Shown one piece after another: positions 5,071 through 37,260 of a DNA stretch of 49,825 bases. Location: the NCBI GenBank assembly GCA_964248365.1, contig CAXTYC010000037.1:1-49825 (forward strand), read 5' to 3'. The stretch comes from an uncultured Chroococcidiopsis sp. GTDB taxonomy: Bacteria; Cyanobacteriota; Cyanobacteriia; Cyanobacteriales; Chroococcidiopsidaceae. The notes under the pieces are model-generated. The model searched no databases. It was not told the DNA's origin and saw only the letters and a program-made list of their open reading frames with translations. Numbering within the stretch: the stretch's first letter is position 1; the number at the start of each line of letters is the position of its first letter. The position numbers were made by a program, and so were the translations under genes.

Positions 5071-6056
5071 GTAAGGATTCAGGTCAGGGGTATTGACAAG
5101 TGTGACATCTGAGGCGGAATATCACAATTATGGAAAAAGACCTGCCTCTGAAAGTAGACCGTGAAACTCTTCTCCAGTTGGCTGCCGAACAACTGGTGGA
5201 CATCATTGCCGAGCAGGCGATCGCTATAGATAAACTAAACAAGAAAATTTTAGAATTAGAGCAAGAAGTACAAAAACTCAAGGTTAGTAGAGATTTAGAT
5301 AGTTCTACATCATCGAAGCCGCCATCTGGGGATATCCTAAAAAAATCAGAAAATCAAGAAGAAGTAGGGGATGGGAACAGCGAGACTCCAAAACGGAAGC
5401 CAGGAGGACAACCAGGACATCCAGGTAAAACTAGAAAGGGGTTTGGTCGAGTAGATAGATTTGAGATTTTACGCCCCCAATTGTGTCGTTGCTGTGGTCA
5501 GACGGACTTTGTTTCAGAACCGATAAAAATCGAAACACAGCAAGTAGCGCAGCTGGCAGAGCGACCAATAGAAATAGTTGAATATCATCGACACACATGC
5601 ATTTGCTCTCGGTGTGGTGAAGCACAAACAGCAGACTGGTCGCCAGATATAGTCCCAGGACAAGATATAGGAATCAAACTGCAAGCTTTTTTGGGATGGA
5701 TAAATAATTATGGACATTTACCCTATGAAAAACAACAAGAACTGTTGTGGGAACTGGGTCAGATAGAAATCGGGGTGGGAACCCTAGTAACTACGAATCA
5801 AAGAATAGATGCTGCTGTTGATAAAAGCGTTAGTGAACTGAAAGATTGGATAGAGCAAACACAGCCAAATATTCATTCGGATGAGACACCTTGGGTTGTG
5901 AAGGGCGTGAAGGAATGGTTGTGGATTTTTGCGAATACAGACTTTGGTCTGTTTCATGCCGCAGATACTCGCAAAGAGTGCACAATTAGAAACCATCCTT
6001 GGTTTGAGCTACAGTGGTGTACTTAGCTCAGACGATTATTGCGTTTATAACGGCTA
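5071..6056 (+). mobile_element. IS66-family element, truncated
   Basis: Left end GTAAGGATTCAGG. TnpC motifs SSKPPSGD, PGGQPGHPG, zinc finger and HSDETPW. Frameshift near 5975; homology ends at the MITE-A copy. Confidence 0.88.
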
Positions 6057-6162
6057 AGTACACTCGTCATAAAAAAATGCGCGAACCGTCAACATAGATA
6101 ACCCTTGCTGCCGAAAAGAAACGCCAACACACGGTTCGCACATTTTTTTCAGACGACCTACT
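6057..6162 (-). mobile_element. MITE family A, copy 2
   Basis: Reverse complement of copy 1 with B-type arms on both sides; TA on both flanks. Confidence 0.9.
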
Positions 6163-6195
6163 TATTGCAGTCTGAGGTAGTTCATCCCTTGCTCC

Positions 6196-11091: not shown

Positions 11092-11219
11092 CGGGGTGAC
11101 AGAGAGCCTACAATGTAGACTGGATCAGAGTCATAGCACGTAGACCCTGCTGAAAATAGGGTAGTTTATTCGGCTTAGTTCGCATTAACTCAATAGCCAA
11201 ATCCGCCCATTGCTCCATA

Positions 11220-11324
11220 AGTAGGTCGTCTGAAATAAACAGCGAACCGTGTGTTGGCGTTTCTTTTCGGCAGCAAGGGTTATCTATGTTGACGGTTCGC
11301 GCATTTTTTTATGACGAGTGTACT
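11220..11324 (+). mobile_element. MITE family A, copy 3
   Basis: Near-identical to copy 1; TA flanks; sits at the break point of the IS701 transposase. Confidence 0.9.
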
Positions 11325-11326
11325 TA

Positions 11327-12149: not shown

Positions 12150-12300
12150 CAAATCTTGCTGTAGCGATCCAAACTTGCGTAAATATGACTAAAGAACTAA
12201 AATTGACTCGAATTAAGGGTTTTGCGGTTAGGTAATCTCTGCGGTGTATTACTTTTCTGTGATTGTCCAACATAGTGAACGAGACTTTTTTTTGATGATA

Positions 12301-12405
12301 AGTACACTCGTCATAAAAAAATGCGCGAACCGTCAACATAGATAACCTTTGCTGCCGAAAAGAAACGCCAACACACGGTTCGCTGTTTATTTCAGACGAC
12401 CTACT
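12301..12405 (-). mobile_element. MITE family A, copy 4
   Basis: Reverse complement of copy 3 with one substitution; TA flanks. Confidence 0.9.
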
Positions 12406-12690
12406 TATTGGGTGCATCCTTTCTGTTCCAGTTTTTCGTCTAAACTCTAGTTTAGGGCTTACGCACTGTAAAAAAACTAAAGTCTGCTTCAACGCCCATT
12501 ACGTTTTTGTGTGCTGTTGGTGTAATCAGCGTCACTTTTATAGCAGTAGACAGCGCAATGCCTACAGTGAAACTGCTGAACTAGGCATTGGTATCATCGT
12601 TAAGATTGGGTAATTTTACTGTAGTTCACAAATTGACGATTAGGTAAAAACTTAATAGACAAAATAAAGGACTTTATAAAGTTTGAGTCG

Positions 12691-17305: not shown

Positions 17306-18772
17306 TCAACGAACGACTTTAAGGGCATCGTACAGTAAACTGTATCGCTTGAACGCTGCTTCATATACAGGATTTGCTTGTGGCTGTACTACAATGCTTT
17401 CAATAGGCAGCATCCCCAATGCAGCTTCTAAATTCGGGAGCGCACCAATCCCCACCATTGCCAGAATTGCTGCTCCCAAAGCCGCTCCTTCATAATACGA
17501 GGGAGTAATAAGTTCTGTTTGCAAAACATCTGCCAAAATTCGTAACCAAACGCTCGATCGCGCTCCTCCACCTGTTGCCAAGAGTTGATGAATGGGAGTC
17601 ATCTTGCCCATTACCTCCAACGCTGTCCGCAAGCTAAATGCAACGCCCTCTAGTACAGCCCGAATCAGATCTGCCTGCGTGTGAGCCAAAGATAGATTAA
17701 CCCAAGCGCCACGAGTATCCCGATCGAGGTGTGGACTGCGTTCTCCTGATAGGTGAGCAAGAAATAGAACGCCTCTGCTACCTGGTAGCGAGCGATTAGC
17801 CATGTCTATTAGATCGGTGTAAGAATGGTTCGGCGCAAATGTATCTCGATACCAACGTAAAGAGCTACCTGCCGCTAATGTCACTCCCAGCAAATAATAT
17901 CCACCATCCACATGAGAGAACAAATGCACCCGACCTTTTGGATCGCCAGTTGGGTGAGCTATGGGTATAAAGATGACTCCTGATGTACCGATACCTAGAC
18001 TGCCTCGGTTTAGATTACTCGATGAAATACCCAGACTGATCGCCGCTGCCGCACTGTCGCTGCCTCCCGCAACTATGGGTAATCGGGCAGGCAGTCCCAC
18101 ACGGGCTGCTATTTCTGATTTCAGCCTTCCAGCGATCGCAGTAGACTTAACGAGCGAGGGGAACAAAGCTGGACTGATATTAAGGGCATTGAGAATATCT
18201 GTATCCCATTGTCGTGAAGCTATATTCAAACACCCCACGCCACAGGCAACAGATGGGTCTGTCACTGCTTCCCCAGTAAGCACGTATCCTATATAATCCT
18301 TTGGCAAAAGACAATGCCGCAACTGAGCATACGCCAGCGGTTCTTGGGTTCGTAGCCATATTAACTTCGGAAGTTGAAACCCTGTAACTATACGATTTCC
18401 CGTCCGCGCAATCAACTCTTGACGAGAAATGGCGGCTTCAATTGTATCAACGGCTTTACCTGTACGCTGGTCATTCCACAAAATTGCTGGTCTGATAACT
18501 CTGCCTTCTGCATCGAGGGGAATCATACCGTGCATTTGTCCAGACAAACCCAGGGCGATCACTCGATGTCCATCTAGCTGTTGAGCAACATTAGATAGCG
18601 CACTAAGACTGGCTTCGACCCAATCCGATGGGTTCTGCTCCGTCCAACCCGGCTGCGGGGTTAACAAGGGATAGCTTCTTGTCGAAGAAGCAATAATTTG
18701 TCCTCGCAAGTCAACAGCAAGTACCCGCACTCCTCCTGTACCCAGATCTAAGCCGATTACAACGTCAGCCAA
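17306..18772 (-). CDS. xylB: Xylulokinase (FGGY carbohydrate kinase)
   Basis: [38 protein letters not shown] and GGGARS motifs. Confidence 0.85.
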
Positions 18773-19795: not shown

Positions 19796-20107
19796 TTAAC
19801 TGGTACGAAACTGTTCAACCTCTTCGGTGTAACGAATGGGCAGAACGTACTCCAGATTTTGATCAGGACGAGCAATAACGTGAGTAGACAAAATTTTCCC
19901 ATTATCGACGCGATTGGCTGCTGCAACCCCGCTGGCAATTGCCGCTTGCACCTCTGCAACATCGCCTCGTATAATTACTGTTACGCGACCACTACCAATT
20001 TTTTCATAGCCAACTAATGTAACGCTGGCAGCTTTGACCATTGAGTCTGCCGCTTCCACTAATGCGGGAAACCCAAGCGTCTCAATCATTCCAATTGCAA
20101 TTGACAT
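19796..20107 (-). CDS. ccmK: BMC-H carboxysome shell protein, CcmK2-like, outside a ccm operon
   Basis: [26 protein letters not shown], pore motif KIGS and C-terminal [14 protein letters not shown]. Confidence 0.93.
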
Positions 20108-20141: not shown

Positions 20142-20466
20142 CTACCCTCGCAATAAAAAGCGCCAAGCTGTGGTGATCTGATTGCTTTTTAGTGAATATT
20201 CAACAAGAGAAGAAAGTACACTCGCCCTTGTTTTATCTAAACTCAATGCCCAATTCCTTACCGCTGATTCAACTGCAAGAGCGTGTATTTGCGGATTTGG
20301 GAGCAACCCCGACTGCCTCACCGTCGCCAACCCCGCCTGGGCGATCGCGCTTTTGACTCTAGCCAGCCCAGAGGGAACGTTATGCCAGAACGAGCGGATT
20401 GCACTCTTTACCTGGGGATTAATGCTGATGTCAGGAGATAAACGGCGTAGTTGTATGCAAACCTCT
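20142..20466 (-). CDS. 3' exon of the twintron host gene (HTH Rep-like protein)
   Basis: Joining 25398 to 20466 gives in-frame DEPTDEEVK-EVCIQLRRLSPDISINPQVK..., open to the stop at 20142. Confidence 0.7.
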
Positions 20467-22407
20467 GTTAGGGTCGAGGGAGGTTATTAGACCTCGCCCC
20501 TCCCTGTTAGATCCGGACGTGCGAGATTTCCCCGCATCCGGCTCCCGACGTTCTTAGTCGTGACTTTTGCTCATGTGGTGGTAATCGTGGCAGCTTTCGT
20601 GGACGGCTGAAAGGTTTTTAGGCTTCCAGTTGTTATGGTTACCATCTACATGATGTAGGTGTACCCTTTCGTCACTTAGCGTTTTTAATCCACAATATCC
20701 ACAGGTATGGTTTTGCCTTTTCAGGACTTGTGAGGTTAATCCGTCATAGAGTTTGCTGTTACGCGCACTCCAGTAGGTTAAGTCGCCATCGTAGGGCGAT
20801 TTGTCTTCCTTGACATTGACGAATCTATTTTCGGAGTAAGGAACGTATGGGAACGCTTTATTCAGTAGTATCTTACTGGTGTGGCGGTTCTGCTTCTTTT
20901 CCTTATTGAATACCTTGAACGCTCTTTTCTGAATGAAATACAGCGAATTTCTCGCTCCATCCATCTTGCAGTAGCGGTGGTAATTTCTCCAACCTCTTAC
21001 TATGGGGGCTAATTTCATAGCCTTGATCTTTGCACCATAATTCGAGTTCTTGACGATTTCTTTTACCTTCTGACGGAAAGCCTTGAAGTTGTCCACTGAT
21101 GGAACACATCTAAACTTTCCGTTGGTTTGCACTTTGAAATGCCACCCAAGGAAATCAAATCCATCTGTCGCTGCGGTTAGCTTTGTTTTCTTTTCACTGA
21201 CATTCATTCCTCTGTGGGCGAGAAACTGGCTGATTTTGTCAAGTATTGCCTTTGCGTCATCTTGGGGTCTTAGTATGAGTCGGGTAGGGCGGGGGCATTG
21301 CTGCCCCTTTCCCCCCTAGAAACCGGACTTACAAGTTTCCAAGTATCCGGCTTGAGCAATCTACAAGGCTATTTCTTCCCATGAGCCTGCTGGTGGCAAT
21401 AAAGGTGCAATAGGCGAAGGTTATTGTAGGTGTCCTTACCACCTTCGCTTTTTGGTTTGACATGATGTAGATGTAGTTCTTCCCCGTTGTATAGGGATTC
21501 ACCACACGTCGGGCATTGGTGGTTTTGATTTTTGGCTATCGTTTGTCGGGATTTGTTTCTCAGGTTTTTCACCTTCTTCATTTCCCTGTCGCTCCAATAG
21601 TCCCTTAAGTCGGGGTCGTCGGAAGAGGATGAGCCTTTAACTAGGGTGTGCCGTTCGATGTCGAACCAACTGAATTTCAGTATATGCGCTCCCAGGCTTT
21701 TATCACCAAATACCCATTTGTCAGGACGGTGAAGATTTAAACTGCCGAAATAGCGTTTTTGTCTCCACTTCCAACCTTTTTTGGGGTGCATTCTCCTGGT
21801 GTGTCGTCTTTCTGTGATAAACATCCACCGATCTAGACCAGAGAAGGTTTCTTTGGAAACTCCAGTACGGAAATAGTTAGCCCATCCCCGAATTACCGAA
21901 TTTAGTTTTCCGAGTAGTTCTGGTAGTCTGAATCTGACAGGAGATAGCCAAATATCCCTAAGTTTTGCCCGTACCTTCTGCACTGACTTGGTACTAGGTT
22001 TTATGAGTAGTTTCCAACCTGTAGCAGTATTGGAGTCTCGATAGTGCCTAATATTAAAACCGAGGAAATCAAAGCCAGCCGTAAGATGTTTTATGCTGGT
22101 TTTTTCAGAGGAAATATTAAGTCCCCTTTGTGCCAGCCATCCTTTTATGACTTCTACGCATATGAGTGCGTCTTCTTTGGTTTCGCAGAACACGCAAAAG
22201 TCGTGGGCGTAGCGCACAACTTGGCGTTTGCCGATAGACTGTCCTCGCAAGTCGTATGTGACTCCAAGGGCTTGTTCCATTCCGTGTAGTGCAATATTAG
22301 CCAAGAGGGGGCTGATATTGCCGCCTTGTGGCGTACCGCTGTCGGTTTCGTGAAAAACCCCTTTATCCATTACTCCTGCTTTGAGCCATTGGTGAATCAA
22401 CTTCCTA

Positions 22408-22511
22408 AGTAGGTCGTCTGAAATAAACAGCGAACCGTGTGTTGGCGGATCTGATCAGCAGCAAGGGTTATCTATGTTGACGGTTCGCGCATTTTTTTAT
22501 GACTTTGTACT
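22408..22511 (+). mobile_element. MITE family A, copy 5
   Basis: TA duplication at 22406-22407 and 22512-22513; excision restores the RT frame. Confidence 0.92.
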
Positions 22512-22958
22512 TAGCTGGGAAGTTGCCAATGCTTTTCATCAGGTAGTCATGGTCGATATTATCAAAACACCCTTGAATGTCAGCGTCTATCACCCATTTT
22601 TTCCGCTTATTAGGGCGGCATATACCATAGATTTTCTCTATGGCATCATGGGCGCTTCTGCCAGGACGAAAACCGTAGCTCGTCCCTTCAAAAAGGGCTG
22701 ACCAGCTTGGCTCCAAAGCATTCTTAACGATTGCCTGTAGGCATCTATCAATTATGCTAGGTATTCCGAGAAGTCGTTTCTTACCGTTTGGCTTAGGAAT
22801 TTCGACACGTTTTGATGGTAGTGGTTTCCAGGGAATAAATTTTCCCAGGGCATCTACTAACACACCTCTTGCTTCCGGTGTAAGTACCAGAAGTTTGTCC
22901 ACCCCAGGCGTGTGCTTGCCAGAGTTCTGCTGTGTTACCCTTCTTACTGCTATCAGTA

Positions 22959-23062
22959 TATTGGAGTCATCCTAAAACTAAGCCCAGCTAGATAAACAAC
23001 AAGCGTATACATAGGAATAAACAGCTCCGCCAAGAGGGCTGGGCTTAATTTACGGATAGGTC
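22959..23062 (-). mobile_element. MITE family C, short copy (net 104-bp insertion)
   Basis: TATTGGAGT repeated at 22959 and 23063; arms TAAGCCCAGC/GCTGGGCTTA; removal restores the RT frame. Confidence 0.85.
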
Positions 23063-23475
23063 TATTGGAGTAGCAACGCATTAGCAGCTTTTGCAGGCTG
23101 CGAACTTTTTTCCAGTTTGACTCACGGGTAGCTCTGAAGATTCTTTGTCTTAGATTTCTCACTACACGGTTGGAGTCGCGCCAGTTGACGCGGCTCCATT
23201 CGGTAGTTTCCTTGGTTACGTTTGCAGTTGCCTGCATCTAACTTTTCCTTTTGGTTTCGATTTCTTTACAAAAGAATTTCAGAAAGATCACCTGCTGCAC
23301 GTCAGCACCCTTTCAGGTTAGGCATCTACCTTATCCGTCAGGTTATGTTTTTTTTCCCTTTGCCTTTCGGCGTGACGGCATTCGCTTCTTGCAGCTTCCT
23401 TATCCCGCTAGGGAATTCGGGTTGCCTTGCGGCTTCCTTACTGAGTGCAAATGCATTCAGTCCCTATCGGGGTTA

Positions 23476-23579
23476 TATGGAATCCTAAAAATAATGAAAC
23501 AGCCTTATTTAAAAATCTCTCGTACACAGCAGGTATTCGCACTTGAAGGCTGTTTCATTATTTTGAGGAAACGTTATTA
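23476..23579. mobile_element. MITE family D in the inner intron RNA (net 104 bp)
   Basis: Perfect 19-bp IR AAAATAATGAAACAGCCTT/AAGGCTGTTTCATTATTTT with TTA repeated at both ends. Confidence 0.75.
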
Positions 23580-25397
23580 CTTCGTTCCGCATGGATTGAG
23601 ATCCGATCTGGGTTGGGTTCCTTTCTTTACTCCGGGGCGAGGTGTCCGCACATTCATGTAGTAAAGCATGGATGCCAGTTGCCCATCCTGCCGTATAAGT
23701 CACTTCCGACAGTTGGATGTCACGAAGCTTAAAAAAGGTTCACTGTACGTTAACCCGTCCACTTCTTCCCCTCGCCTCCCTTTCAAGATGTGACTACCTA
23801 CCGGGGTTCGGCTTTTCCTCTAGCTTTGAGACAACCGGATTACTCCTATTGCCCCTTTGGATGGGGACGGCTTTGTTGGACACTTAGCCGGAGAGTTGTT
23901 CCTATGAGGCTCTCACTCAAACCATGCGACATCGAGTCGCACCTACCATGTCATCCGCATAGCGGATTGTGGGTTCTACTAATTTCCCATCTCTGTATCT
24001 ATGGATACTTTCGATGCCATTTAATGCAATGTTAGCTAACAAGGGACTCACCACGCCCCCTTGAGGTGTACCCACATCGGGGTATTCACAGGTTGACTCC
24101 TGATTTGAGACAGCGGAAAATCCCTGTCTTGATGCCCCTTGGGACGATGAGTCGTTCCATTATGGATGTGTGGCTTATCCTATCGAAGCATTTTTCGATG
24201 TCCAGTTCGAGGACTCGTTTTCCTTTTCCGCCCCTATCGGAGCGTAGGTTTAATTGCAGGAGTTTTTGAGCGTCATGCGTTGAACGTCCTGGTCTAAACC
24301 CATAGCTACGTGCCTGAAAGGTTGCTTCGTGTGCTGGTTCCATTGCGAATTTTACGAGGCAAAGACACGCTCTATCCGCGATGGTTGGGACTTTTAGGAT
24401 TCGGGTTTTCCCGTCCTTTTTTGGGATTGGGATTTCCCTTAACTTCTGGTGTTGCCAGTTGTTATAGTGGTTCCTGAGCCAAAGACTCAGGTTTAGCCTC
24501 TCATAGAAGGTTAGGGAGGCTTTGCCATCTACTCCTGCTGTCCGTTTTCCAGCGTTTAGCTGCGTTACTTGACGTACTGCCAACATTCTCGCCGCATAGG
24601 ATTTCAGTATCAGCTTTTGAAGGGACGCGCGCTTTGCGCTTGTCACCTGCTCGAATAGCTTTCCACACTCGCACTTGTAGGCGGAATAGACTGCGCTGGA
24701 GTTTCTTCCAGTCTGTCTTTTTCCAAAGTTCACTAGCTTTTGGGCTGTATCTAACCATGCTCTGTTTGTGTTTGTGTGTTCGCAAGCGCCTTGCAGCAAT
24801 TACGCTGCATCCTACCCACATCGAGGATTTCCGCTGCTCGTCCAGCCGAAGAGGTTCGACCTTTCCCAAGACCTCTAATGTGTTTTTATTCGTTCGCTCG
24901 GTCAGATTGTTACGTTCTTTTAGGTGTAGCCAGTTCAACTATTGGGTTCCCTTGACTCTTGCCGCTTACAGTAAAATTTTGCGGCGGGAATGTTTCTCCT
25001 TTTTCTTGGGAGTTTTTCCCCAATGGGGTCGGGGGTTTTATGTTGCGCCCCGCTGCGAAGTAAGTTGCTTTTTTTTAGGCTCTTTTTCACCGTGAGAACT
25101 CCCCATTAGCATGAGAGATTTGGGGGAGAATAATTCTTCCCCAAACTCTCTCGCCAGTGTCACCCCGCCACGGATGTCTGATTGCGCCCTGTTCCCAGCT
25201 TCGCTCTGCCGATTTCCCTTGCGGTACTCCAAGTCGGTTCGGCGTGGGCAGGTAGGGATTTACGCCTGAGTCTGGCGAGTGGGGTTTTCACCCACATACA
25301 ACCAAGAGTTCAACCTTTAGTGACAGTAATCTGCTGTCGGGTTGGGTAGCTTATGCTTCGGACTGATTACCGAGATTCGGCTACCAACGAATCGCAA

Positions 25398-25940
25398 TTT
25401 ACTTCTTCGTCTGTCGGCTCATCCTGTTTTTCCCCTTCTTCCTCTACTTCGCCAACAGCAGCAGGCTCTGCTTGTGGTTGAGCATAAGAAAGACTTGAGT
25501 TAGAACCTATGTTATTGTCCCGATTTTGGACTGTCGATGTCCTAGCTTCAGACTCTCGATGTTCTGATTTATCGCATTCAACAGTCTGCAAATCGCATAA
25601 GTCAATATACTGGGATAGCTTCTGGGAAACGATACGGTACTTCCAGGCGCGATCTGTCGCCCAACGCTTTGCTCGTTGCCTCTCAATCACTCCCAACTCT
25701 AATAACCGTTGGAGGTGGCGAAAAATAGTATCTTTACAATATCCTAATTCGGCAGCTTTCGTCAGATAATACCAGCCAAATCCAATCTGACTGCGCTTCT
25801 TTACGTTTAGTTCGAGTCCAATTATCTAGCCAAGAAAGAATCGCTGCCTGACACTTGTTTCCAAAGGCAGCCAAATATTCTTGCAAAATATTGATTGGAT
25901 GCTGCACCCCGCCAAGAAATGCAGATGTGAAGTGTGACAT
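25398..25940 (-). pseudogene. 5' exon of the host gene: winged-HTH, replication-initiator-like protein with a frameshift near 25760
   Basis: QAAILSWLDNW...WIWL, then in a shifted frame AAELGYCKDTIFRHLQRLLELGVIER (HTH). Confidence 0.6.
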
Positions 25941-35693: not shown

Positions 35694-35994
35694 ATGAAAG
35701 TTTACGAAGTAATAAAAACACTAAAAAGTTCTGGTTGGCGTTTGGAACGGACGACGGGCAGCCACCGCCAATTCAAACACCCTGTTATGCCACAGCTAGT
35801 TACTTTACCTGGAAAACTTTCGCGCATAAGTAGGTCGTCTGAAAAAAATGTGCGAACCGTGTGTTGGCGGATCTGTTATTGCCGCTAGGGTTATCTATGT
35901 TGACGGTTCGCTGTTTATTTATGACGAGTGTACTTACATTCCCATTGGTACACTTCATAAAATTAAGAAAATCGCGTGTCTAAGGATTAAATAA
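35694..35994 (+). pseudogene. hicA: HicA toxin gene interrupted by MITE-A
   Basis: GW...RTTGSHRQFKHP...VTLPG before the MITE and IPIGTLHKI after it. Exact frame is not restored by TA excision. No hicB adjacent. Confidence 0.82.
35829..35934 (+). mobile_element. MITE family A, copy 6
   Basis: TA flanks; B-type left arm and A-type right arm. Confidence 0.9.
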
Positions 35995-36514: not shown

Positions 36515-37051
36515 CCACTAGTAGCAATTGTGATCGCGCTGTCACTACAAAACACCCAATAACTAGCACTTCACTTTACTTTTGGATAGGCTCTGAAGTG
36601 GAACAAGAATTAAAGCCTGATAAAATTCCCTGTATTTGGCAATGCTGTGGGGAATATGAAATTATGGCTTGTAGTTTAACTGATGCCATTGCTTTAGCTG
36701 AAGGAAAAGGGGTTTAAATAAGTAAAAATCACTAGAGGCAATCGTACAAGTTTAAAAGTGAGTTGCAAGTAATGTAGACTTTAAAAGCAAAACATCAAGA
36801 GTAGGTGACAGCTTTTACCAAAATTAGGAGAATAAGTAATTACCAGCCTTTTCAAGAGTATTTGTCCGCATTGGTAGTGATTTGACAATGCGATCGCTCA
36901 CTTGCCTGAACTTTTTATAACTCTGTGAGAATTTTTAAAATCCTCGCTCCTCTTACCAAAAATGCGATTGCTCTCATCCAAGACTGAATAAATTATGAAG
37001 CAAAAAACAGTTGCCGCTTTGTTGCAAGCTTACAGGCGATTGCAACAGATA

Positions 37052-37157
37052 AGTAGGTCGTCTGAAATAAACAGCGAACCGTGTGTTGGCGGATCTGTTA
37101 TTGCCGCTAGGGTTATCTATGTTGACGGTTCGCACATTTTTTTATGACGAGTGTACT
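37052..37157 (+). mobile_element. MITE family A, copy 7
   Basis: TA flanks; shares the TA at 37158-37159 with MITE-B. Confidence 0.9.
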
Positions 37158-37159
37158 TA

Positions 37160-37260
37160 GCGTTTTTCTGACAAATTGGTGAAACCTTCATTAACATAAC
37201 TGTGTGTATACTGGACTATTCGAGAGGACAAAAAGGTTTCACACGTTACGAAAACGGGTG
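37160..37260 (+). mobile_element. MITE family B, copy 3
   Basis: TA on both sides; near-identical to the other two copies. Confidence 0.88.

Follow-up and report, generated by a model that had tools for sequence, protein, structure and literature searches.

A twintron inside a replication-initiator-like gene

The window analysed here, 49,825 nt of DNA from an uncultured Chroococcidiopsis sp. (assembly GCA_964248365.1), is the whole of contig CAXTYC010000037.1 (G000:C37 in our numbering). On its minus strand, a winged helix-turn-helix gene resembling replication initiators is interrupted by a group II intron, and the reverse transcriptase (RT) gene of that intron is itself interrupted by a second group II intron (Table 1). 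An earlier note, made from the sequence alone, had called this arrangement a twintron and proposed that the inner intron targets the YADD catalytic codons of other introns' RTs.

Each intron carries a domain V with its AGC triad, and a domain VI, at the 3′ end that the note had given it. Rfam model RF00029 matches 20467-20546 at 52.2 bits and 21279-21355 at 48.4 bits (gathering score 40), the first match ending at the outer and the second at the inner 3′ end, and both regions fold. Excision of 21279-23942 restores the frame of the outer RT, which then reads RYADDMV/VILRP, and excision of 20467-25397 gives the in-frame host junction DEEVK/EVCIQL; both rebuilt junctions agree with the note. A public contig carrying a relative of the outer intron (X2) runs across the empty inner site (21276 to 23945), and three intron-free host homologues (L251, L252 and L253; 82-87% identical) are colinear over the outer junction, exactly at AAA/A. 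Empty-site homologues, Rfam ends and rebuilt frames together thus show that all four boundaries are exact and that the twintron is genuine. What does not stand is a working twintron in an intact gene, as both the copy and its host are pseudogenised. Minimum free energy (MFE) folding recovered domains V and VI, local stems and part of domains I-IV, as a set of MFE predictions and not a curated whole-ribozyme model. Beyond the earlier note, we found three inserts and a YAHD motif in the inner intron, frameshifts and a UUGCG 5′ end in the outer intron, and a broken host gene.

Table 1. Features of the twintron and its host gene, by position in the window (EBS, exon-binding site; MITE, miniature inverted-repeat transposable element; ORF, open reading frame).
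Feature	Position	Strand	Remarks
Outer group II intron, IIB2/CL2-type	20467..25397; pieces 23943-25397 and 20467-21278	minus	2267 nt without inner intron
Outer domains V-VI	20467..20546	minus	RF00029 52.2 bits; fold z -3.41
Outer RT/maturase ORF	20554..24758	minus	split by inner intron; +1 frameshifts near 24627 and 24088
Outer RT YADD codons	23950..23961	minus	inner intron starts 7 nt past YADD
Outer EBS1 UUUACU	24970..24975	minus	complements AGUAAA at the exon end; weak upper stem
42-nt hairpin insert, outer domain I	25112..25153	minus	same sequence in four divergent introns of the window genome
Inner group II intron, IIB1/CL1-type	21279..23942	minus	2664 nt in the window, 2350 nt once inserts are taken out; 2346-2348 nt in intact sisters
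Inner domains V-VI	21279..21355	minus	RF00029 48.4 bits; atypical domain V as in both intact sisters
Inner RT-X-HNH ORF	21369..23237	minus	552 codons without inserts; frameshifted by two inserts
Inner RT active site, YAHD	22200..22211	minus	YADD in both intact sisters
Inner EBS1 UUACUA	23659..23664	minus	pairs exon -6..-1; 6/6 with UGGUAG
Inner EBS2a (G 23721) and EBS2 (CAUCC 23715-23719)	23715..23721	minus	pair exon -15 and -14..-10
MITE-like insert 1, domain I	23473..23576	minus	104 bp; 3-nt ambiguity at the ends; C41 has an identical copy
MITE-like insert 2, in ORF	22959..23062	minus	104 bp; 9-nt ambiguity at the ends; C77 has a copy at 88%
MITE-like insert 3, in ORF	22406..22511	minus	106 bp; TA at each end; 7 copies on the window contig
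Host 5′ exon, winged helix-turn-helix, replication-initiator-like	25398..25940	minus	frameshifted near 25760
Host 3′ exon remnant	20334..20466	minus	homology stops after about residue 221 of 305 (near 20335)

Close relatives of the inner intron insert at RT active-site codons

We defined a close family of the inner intron (85-97% nucleotide identity), sampled from three genomes and one metagenome contig. Among the 28 genomes of the cyanobacterial family, close relatives occur in G003 and G004. The three copies in G003 and two in G004 give five readable 5′ junctions, all 7 nt past RYADD (YADD+7), and three 3′ junctions, all continuing the RT frame. A contig from run X23 adds one 5′ and one 3′ junction at YADD+7, read by hand as a loose end. 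With the window included, 7/7 readable 5′ junctions lie at YADD+7 and 5/5 3′ exons continue the RT frame. The host RTs differ from site to site, indicating separate insertions. No junction was readable for L229 (83% amino acid identity) or a fragment on G024:C91, and a 73%-identical paralogue on contig C8 of the window genome is not inserted in an RT gene. These junctions support the proposal that the inner lineage targets the RT catalytic codons of other introns. Copies at unrelated targets, which the note held would refute such specialisation, do not occur among the readable junctions of the close family, and the note's own test thus comes out in its favour; in the wider subgroup described below, 49 of 63 readable cases are not at YADD sites.

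RNA guides follow the host codons

The positions of EBS2a, EBS2 and EBS1 follow the definitions in PMC8643678. The inner EBS1 proposed earlier, UUACUA, is a unique hexamer in the first 620 nt of the intron, lies in the loop of a stem and makes all six pairs with UGGUAG, the two hydrophobic codons after YADD. EBS2a pairs the C of the Ala codon, and EBS2 pairs the Ala wobble base and the Asp codons of YADD. In the guide U-G-A-CAUCC, EBS2a lies two nucleotides upstream of a 5-bp EBS2 and is flanked 3′ by A, the arrangement by which CL1/IIB1 introns are recognised; the EBS2a/EBS2 register is one nucleotide further out than usual (-15, -14..-10).

Across the window, G003 and G004, EBS1 (UUACUA, UGACUA and UUAUGA) and EBS2 (CAUCC, CGUCU and CGUCG) change in step with the host codons. 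In the 14 YADD-site introns of the wider census, EBS1 pairs on average 5.6 of 6 positions with its own target, compared with 4.0 for the others' targets; EBS2 pairs 4.6 of 5, and EBS2a (G with C-15) is Watson-Crick in 14/14. The first 3′-exon base is T at all readable +7 sites. We also considered self-avoidance, as EBS1 pairs the intron's own YADD codons less well than its target in 11 of the 14 (equally in two, better in one). We do not claim it: the own-site mean of 4.1 equals the non-cognate 4.0, and only the window clade is clearly low (2-3 of 6).

Target sites in the wider subgroup

The census combined scans of genome and metagenome collections (best 80 of 201 and best 80 of 530 loci), a pattern search of 401 genomes of the order, and plasmid records; 108 loci of at least 55% protein identity were kept. 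The pattern search returned five positive genomes, and a control pattern occurred in two. L200, whose 5′ end differed between two readings, was dropped from the counts, and loci of identical DNA (L049 and L002; L050 and L035) were counted once each. Readable 5′ junctions lie at YADD sites in 14 of 63 cases and at other sites in 49. The YADD register is +7 in 13/14 and +6 in one (L051, backed by its 3′ frame). Besides the close family, YADD+7 insertion occurs in a second cyanobacterial branch (L255-L257, L041), in a branch from Ktedonobacteria and soil, and in G508, as a truncated intron 63% identical in domain I. The host RTs are 36-58% identical to the invader's own protein (13/14 alignable) and in no case the invader itself; by similarity and motifs they are labelled CL2-, CL1- and ML-like.

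Several loci in or beside the census stand apart. The intron of Ktedonobacter at L051:3407, inserted at YADD+6, has guides shifted to match; at L116:4760 a different intron 5′ end lies at YADD+1. In a sister clade from soil metagenomes (L176-L206), insertion recurs after codons reading roughly FFKLQLVMFFEDI, and this target is probably one conserved transposase-like gene. YADD+7 matches in viral contigs were treated as chance, since 12/12 have no intron protein nearby; the +1 junction pattern gave no match in these contigs.

Origin of the YADD+7 site

In an IQ-TREE tree of 54 proteins (LG+G4), YADD users occupy three places: the window clade (support 100/100), the second cyanobacterial clade (100/98) and the Ktedonobacteria/soil clade (100/100), the last with YADD users interleaved with non-RT users. 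On the 38 rows of known state, seven changes of target state are needed. TAYG occurs at -19/-18 in 9 of 16 distinct non-RT sites within a 32-row node (shuffle mean 0.30; 0/5000 shuffles reach 9) and in 0/5 non-RT sites outside it, including those of the window clade's nearer relatives; kin in these counts are not independent. The pattern fits either an ancestral YADD target with later retargeting or an intron-encoded protein (IEP) preference pre-adapted to Tyr-Ala codons.

The CL1 subgroup, or if not all of it then its Ktedonobacteria-side branch, may have used YADD+7 ancestrally, with the non-RT members retargeted and TAYG left as a vestige; we place this history slightly below an even chance. 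It would account for TAYG upstream of the intron-binding site IBS2 in so many non-RT sites, for the YADD-type EBS2a/EBS2 that L172 retains, for YADD use by the two deepest soil-branch rows (L133 and L199) and for the same +7 register in three branches. The seven changes tell against it, as does the absence of TAYG outside the node. Alternatively, and a little less probably, each of the three branches came to YADD+7 on its own; the IEP would read TAYG in part of the subgroup, and drift would have been needed in the EBS guides only. Tyr-Ala codons supply TAYG at -19/-18, the branches starred in the tree separate the YADD groups (0% of 200 bootstrap trees unite them, counting rows of unknown site as non-YADD), EBS sequences change quickly, and L051 sits at +6. 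However, TAYG is equally explicable as a vestige, and its reading by the IEP is deduced from target conservation and fails for the window clade's neighbours, where the count of 0/5 led us to reject a universal TAYG pre-adaptation.

Class and decay of the inner intron

The best solved relative of the inner-lineage IEP is the Thermosynechococcus elongatus maturase 6ME0 (377 bits; the next reaches at most 164 bits), and the IEP of the intact sister carries the Pfam domains RVT_N, RVT_1, GIIM and HNH (PF01844). The inner intron begins with GUGCG, and its class fits CL1/IIB1, assigned by similarity and motifs rather than from a tree with named CL1 and CL2 references. An AA bulge and two U-U pairs mark its domain V (21316-21355), and the intact multicopy sisters show the same ones; these oddities are therefore a trait of the lineage and not decay.

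Compared with intact copies from G003 (89% nucleotide identity) and G004 (86%), the inner intron has three inserts: one of 104 bp in domain I and, within the ORF, one of 104 bp and one of 106 bp. Without them the ORF is open across 552 codons. Judged by its predicted proteins, this copy is a relic, disabled by the inserts and by point changes. A compatible site on contig C68 of the same genome is empty. We rejected the argument that this proves the window copy dead, since the active G003 also leaves compatible sites empty.

Each of the three inserts has long inverted repeats that are imperfect, carries TA(A) at either end and has other copies in the genome. They show the traits by which MITEs are predicted (short, non-coding, inverted repeats, target duplication, dispersed), and we tentatively label them IS630/Tc1-like. 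No autonomous transposase with MITE ends was found in the window genome; the long versions are other insertion sequence elements nested with the repeat. The family of insert 3 (about 108 bp) has 7 of about 11 close copies on the window contig, at 318-426, 6053-6164, 11218-11326, 12299-12407, 22406-22511, 35827-35936 and 37050-37161, and was seen in one of 20 relatives, at 75%. Two copies lie in or beside a transposase remnant, which we take to be IS701-like. At G000:C18:108975-110421, a transposase element, presumably ISAs1-like, is nested within a copy of the insert 3 repeat.

Outer intron and host gene

The criteria for CL2/IIB2 are a 5′ GUGCGAUUC, two additional stem-loops where domain I has its base, and a cyanobacterial distribution. 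The outer intron has the 5′ sequence UUGCGAUUC, two stem-loops within its first 75 nt (z -1.4) and, among 1647 plasmid records, 12 best relatives that are all cyanobacterial. On these points, which concern similarity and motifs, it is provisionally classed as IIB2/CL2. Where group II introns have a 5′ GUGYG, the outer 5′ end is UUGCG; the listed relatives have GUGCG in 5/5. The pairing of outer EBS1 UUUACU with AGUAAA in the earlier note holds as complementarity; its loop setting does not, as the upper part of the stem does not fold. Contigs from three runs are without one base at 24627-24630, at the first outer frameshift. The contigs of the four runs compared come from relatives and not from the window strain: the breaks are absent in relatives, and an assembly error in the window is possible.

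The 42-nt hairpin occupies the same spot of domain I in CL2-type introns of the window and of contigs C28, C67 and C95 of its genome, introns that are about 73-80% alike, and lies within a 61-nt block perfectly common to the four. It is absent from 27/27 other genomes of the family, from the eight G003 and G004 introns checked and from a near-identical public contig. The distribution points to exchange of the hairpin by gene conversion among these divergent introns, or to a very small element with site specificity.

The winged helix-turn-helix region of the host gene has weak matches to phage replication initiators (best PHROG E 1e-6), and its frameshift and truncation mark the gene as a predicted pseudogene. 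A bacterial microcompartment (BMC) shell gene (19796-20107) and an FGGY kinase gene (17306-18772) lie directly past the truncated 3′ end, and a gene for a Rha-like phage regulator (26417-27184) lies near the 5′ side. The neighbourhood suggests the edge of a decayed integrated element.

Discussion

We consider it very probable that the window holds a decayed twintron made by site-specific retrohoming into RT motif C at YADD+7. A CL2/IIB2 intron would first have entered a replication-initiator-like gene of a mobile element, and a CL1/IIB1 intron encoding RT, maturase and HNH endonuclease would then have homed into the RT of the first, by reverse splicing, HNH cleavage and target-primed reverse transcription as in known IIB1 retrohoming. 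Each RT-bearing intron that arrives in a genome may thereby offer a new non-essential target, and since the invader is able to splice itself out, production of the host RT may continue. Later, the three MITE-like inserts together with point changes would have put both intron proteins and the host gene out of action.

Several observations weigh against this account. The habit is labile in the wider subgroup, where non-RT sequence precedes the intron in 49 of 63 readable cases and where L137, a non-RT user, and L148, a YADD user, are sisters with branch lengths of 0.02 and 0.013. Sampling of the close family is thin, and five empty sites in G003 pair 5-6/6 with the EBS1 of the G003 introns; targeting is therefore not saturating. 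EBS3 was not located in the inner intron, and MFE folding recovered domains I-IV in part only. The steps of the mechanism above are drawn by analogy with IIB1 introns.

Nested introns of Methanosarcina acetivorans reportedly also reflect repeated site-specific homing into other group II introns; they are said to form arrays of up to five introns, to have no coding flanks and to belong to a different lineage. Published twintrons at other sites include examples in T. elongatus, Methanosarcina and Porphyridium. Homing to RYADD codons is already known as a strategy: B.th.I3, M.a.I5, UA.I3 and P.l.I2 insert at RYADD of RT genes, mostly those of other introns, making twintrons as here (Tourasse and Kolsto 2008, PMC2504315). 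Those introns are 1.8 kb long and endonuclease-less, and their quoted 5′ target ends one base past the motif, so we infer a +1 position for them. The present introns, in contrast, are 2346-2350 nt long and HNH-positive, have a CL1-like IEP, insert at YADD+7 (once +6) and occur in cyanobacteria and Ktedonobacteria. In T. elongatus TeI3/TeI4 (PMC2882425, 6ME0), a IIB1/CL1 intron likewise occupies a conserved site inside another group II intron, and a 5′ U variant occurs, as in the outer intron here; its inner intron, however, is ORF-less and separates the first two ATGs of a related intron instead of lying in motif C. The twintron Tery_4732 of Trichodesmium (PMC4649490) also has a IIB1 intron with atypical domain V inside a IIB2 intron in a coding gene. 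In that case the inner intron occupies domain I, and the two introns splice in vivo in an intact host, whereas the window's inner intron occupies the RT ORF and all components are pseudogenised.

The evidence bears unequally on other explanations. One is that the window copy is alive, its inner ribozyme splicing with a maturase supplied in trans, for example from the C8 paralogue, which is 65% identical and gives one unbroken match over residues 5-549. EBS1, EBS2 and EBS2a pair fully and domains V and VI match those of the intact sisters, and yet a 104-bp insert lies in domain I, and both ORFs and the host gene are broken, so that splicing is under no selection. IEPs are usually cognate-specific, which also counts against splicing in trans. 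Trans-acting IEPs have been published for T. elongatus (PMC2882425), and on balance we regard a living copy as unlikely. It is very improbable that the inner intron belongs to the published RYADD-homing lineage: the target motif is shared, but 2.35 kb, an HNH domain and YADD+7 stand against 1.8 kb, no endonuclease and +1, as compared by description. Slightly less credible still is that the insertion arose by chance, or that one ancestral twintron was passed on by descent or transfer as a unit; different hosts at the same codon position already refute this. Most close relatives do come from one cyanobacterial family, but the host RTs differ at each site, including in class, and the guides track their targets. 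Retrohoming into motif C followed by decay is the reading we prefer.

What looks undescribed is the CL1, endonuclease-positive lineage and its +7 site. Our literature search found no CL1 or +7 YADD-homing intron, and the Zimmerly database, the supplements of PMC8643678 and PMC2504315, and Dai and Zimmerly (2003) may list some. Published surveys drop or miss twintrons (PMC4028801, PMC8919778), and the lineage may therefore have gone unrecorded. We give about an even chance to the broader proposal that the RT active-site codons of other group II introns, of several classes, are the speciality of an undescribed endonuclease-bearing CL1/IIB1 lineage spread over cyanobacteria and Ktedonobacteria, independently of the +1 lineage, with the YADD target as an evolutionary hub.

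The locus in the window itself appears to be dead, a relic from which no effect on the cell is expected. At least a second lineage, at a second position, is now seen to home into RT catalytic codons, which looks like a recurring survival strategy and not an isolated case. If the broader proposal is true, the IEP-read TAYG would stay fixed while the EBS guides drift and descendants switch host intron class or turn to non-RT targets; introns parasitising other introns would have converged on RT motif C as a hot spot, and the lineage would amount to natural RT-knockout targetrons. The family is a natural source of data on how EBS1, EBS2 and EBS2a covary with a protein-constrained target, and offers a direct route to how group II introns may gain targets, the protein-read bases fixed and the RNA guides drifting.

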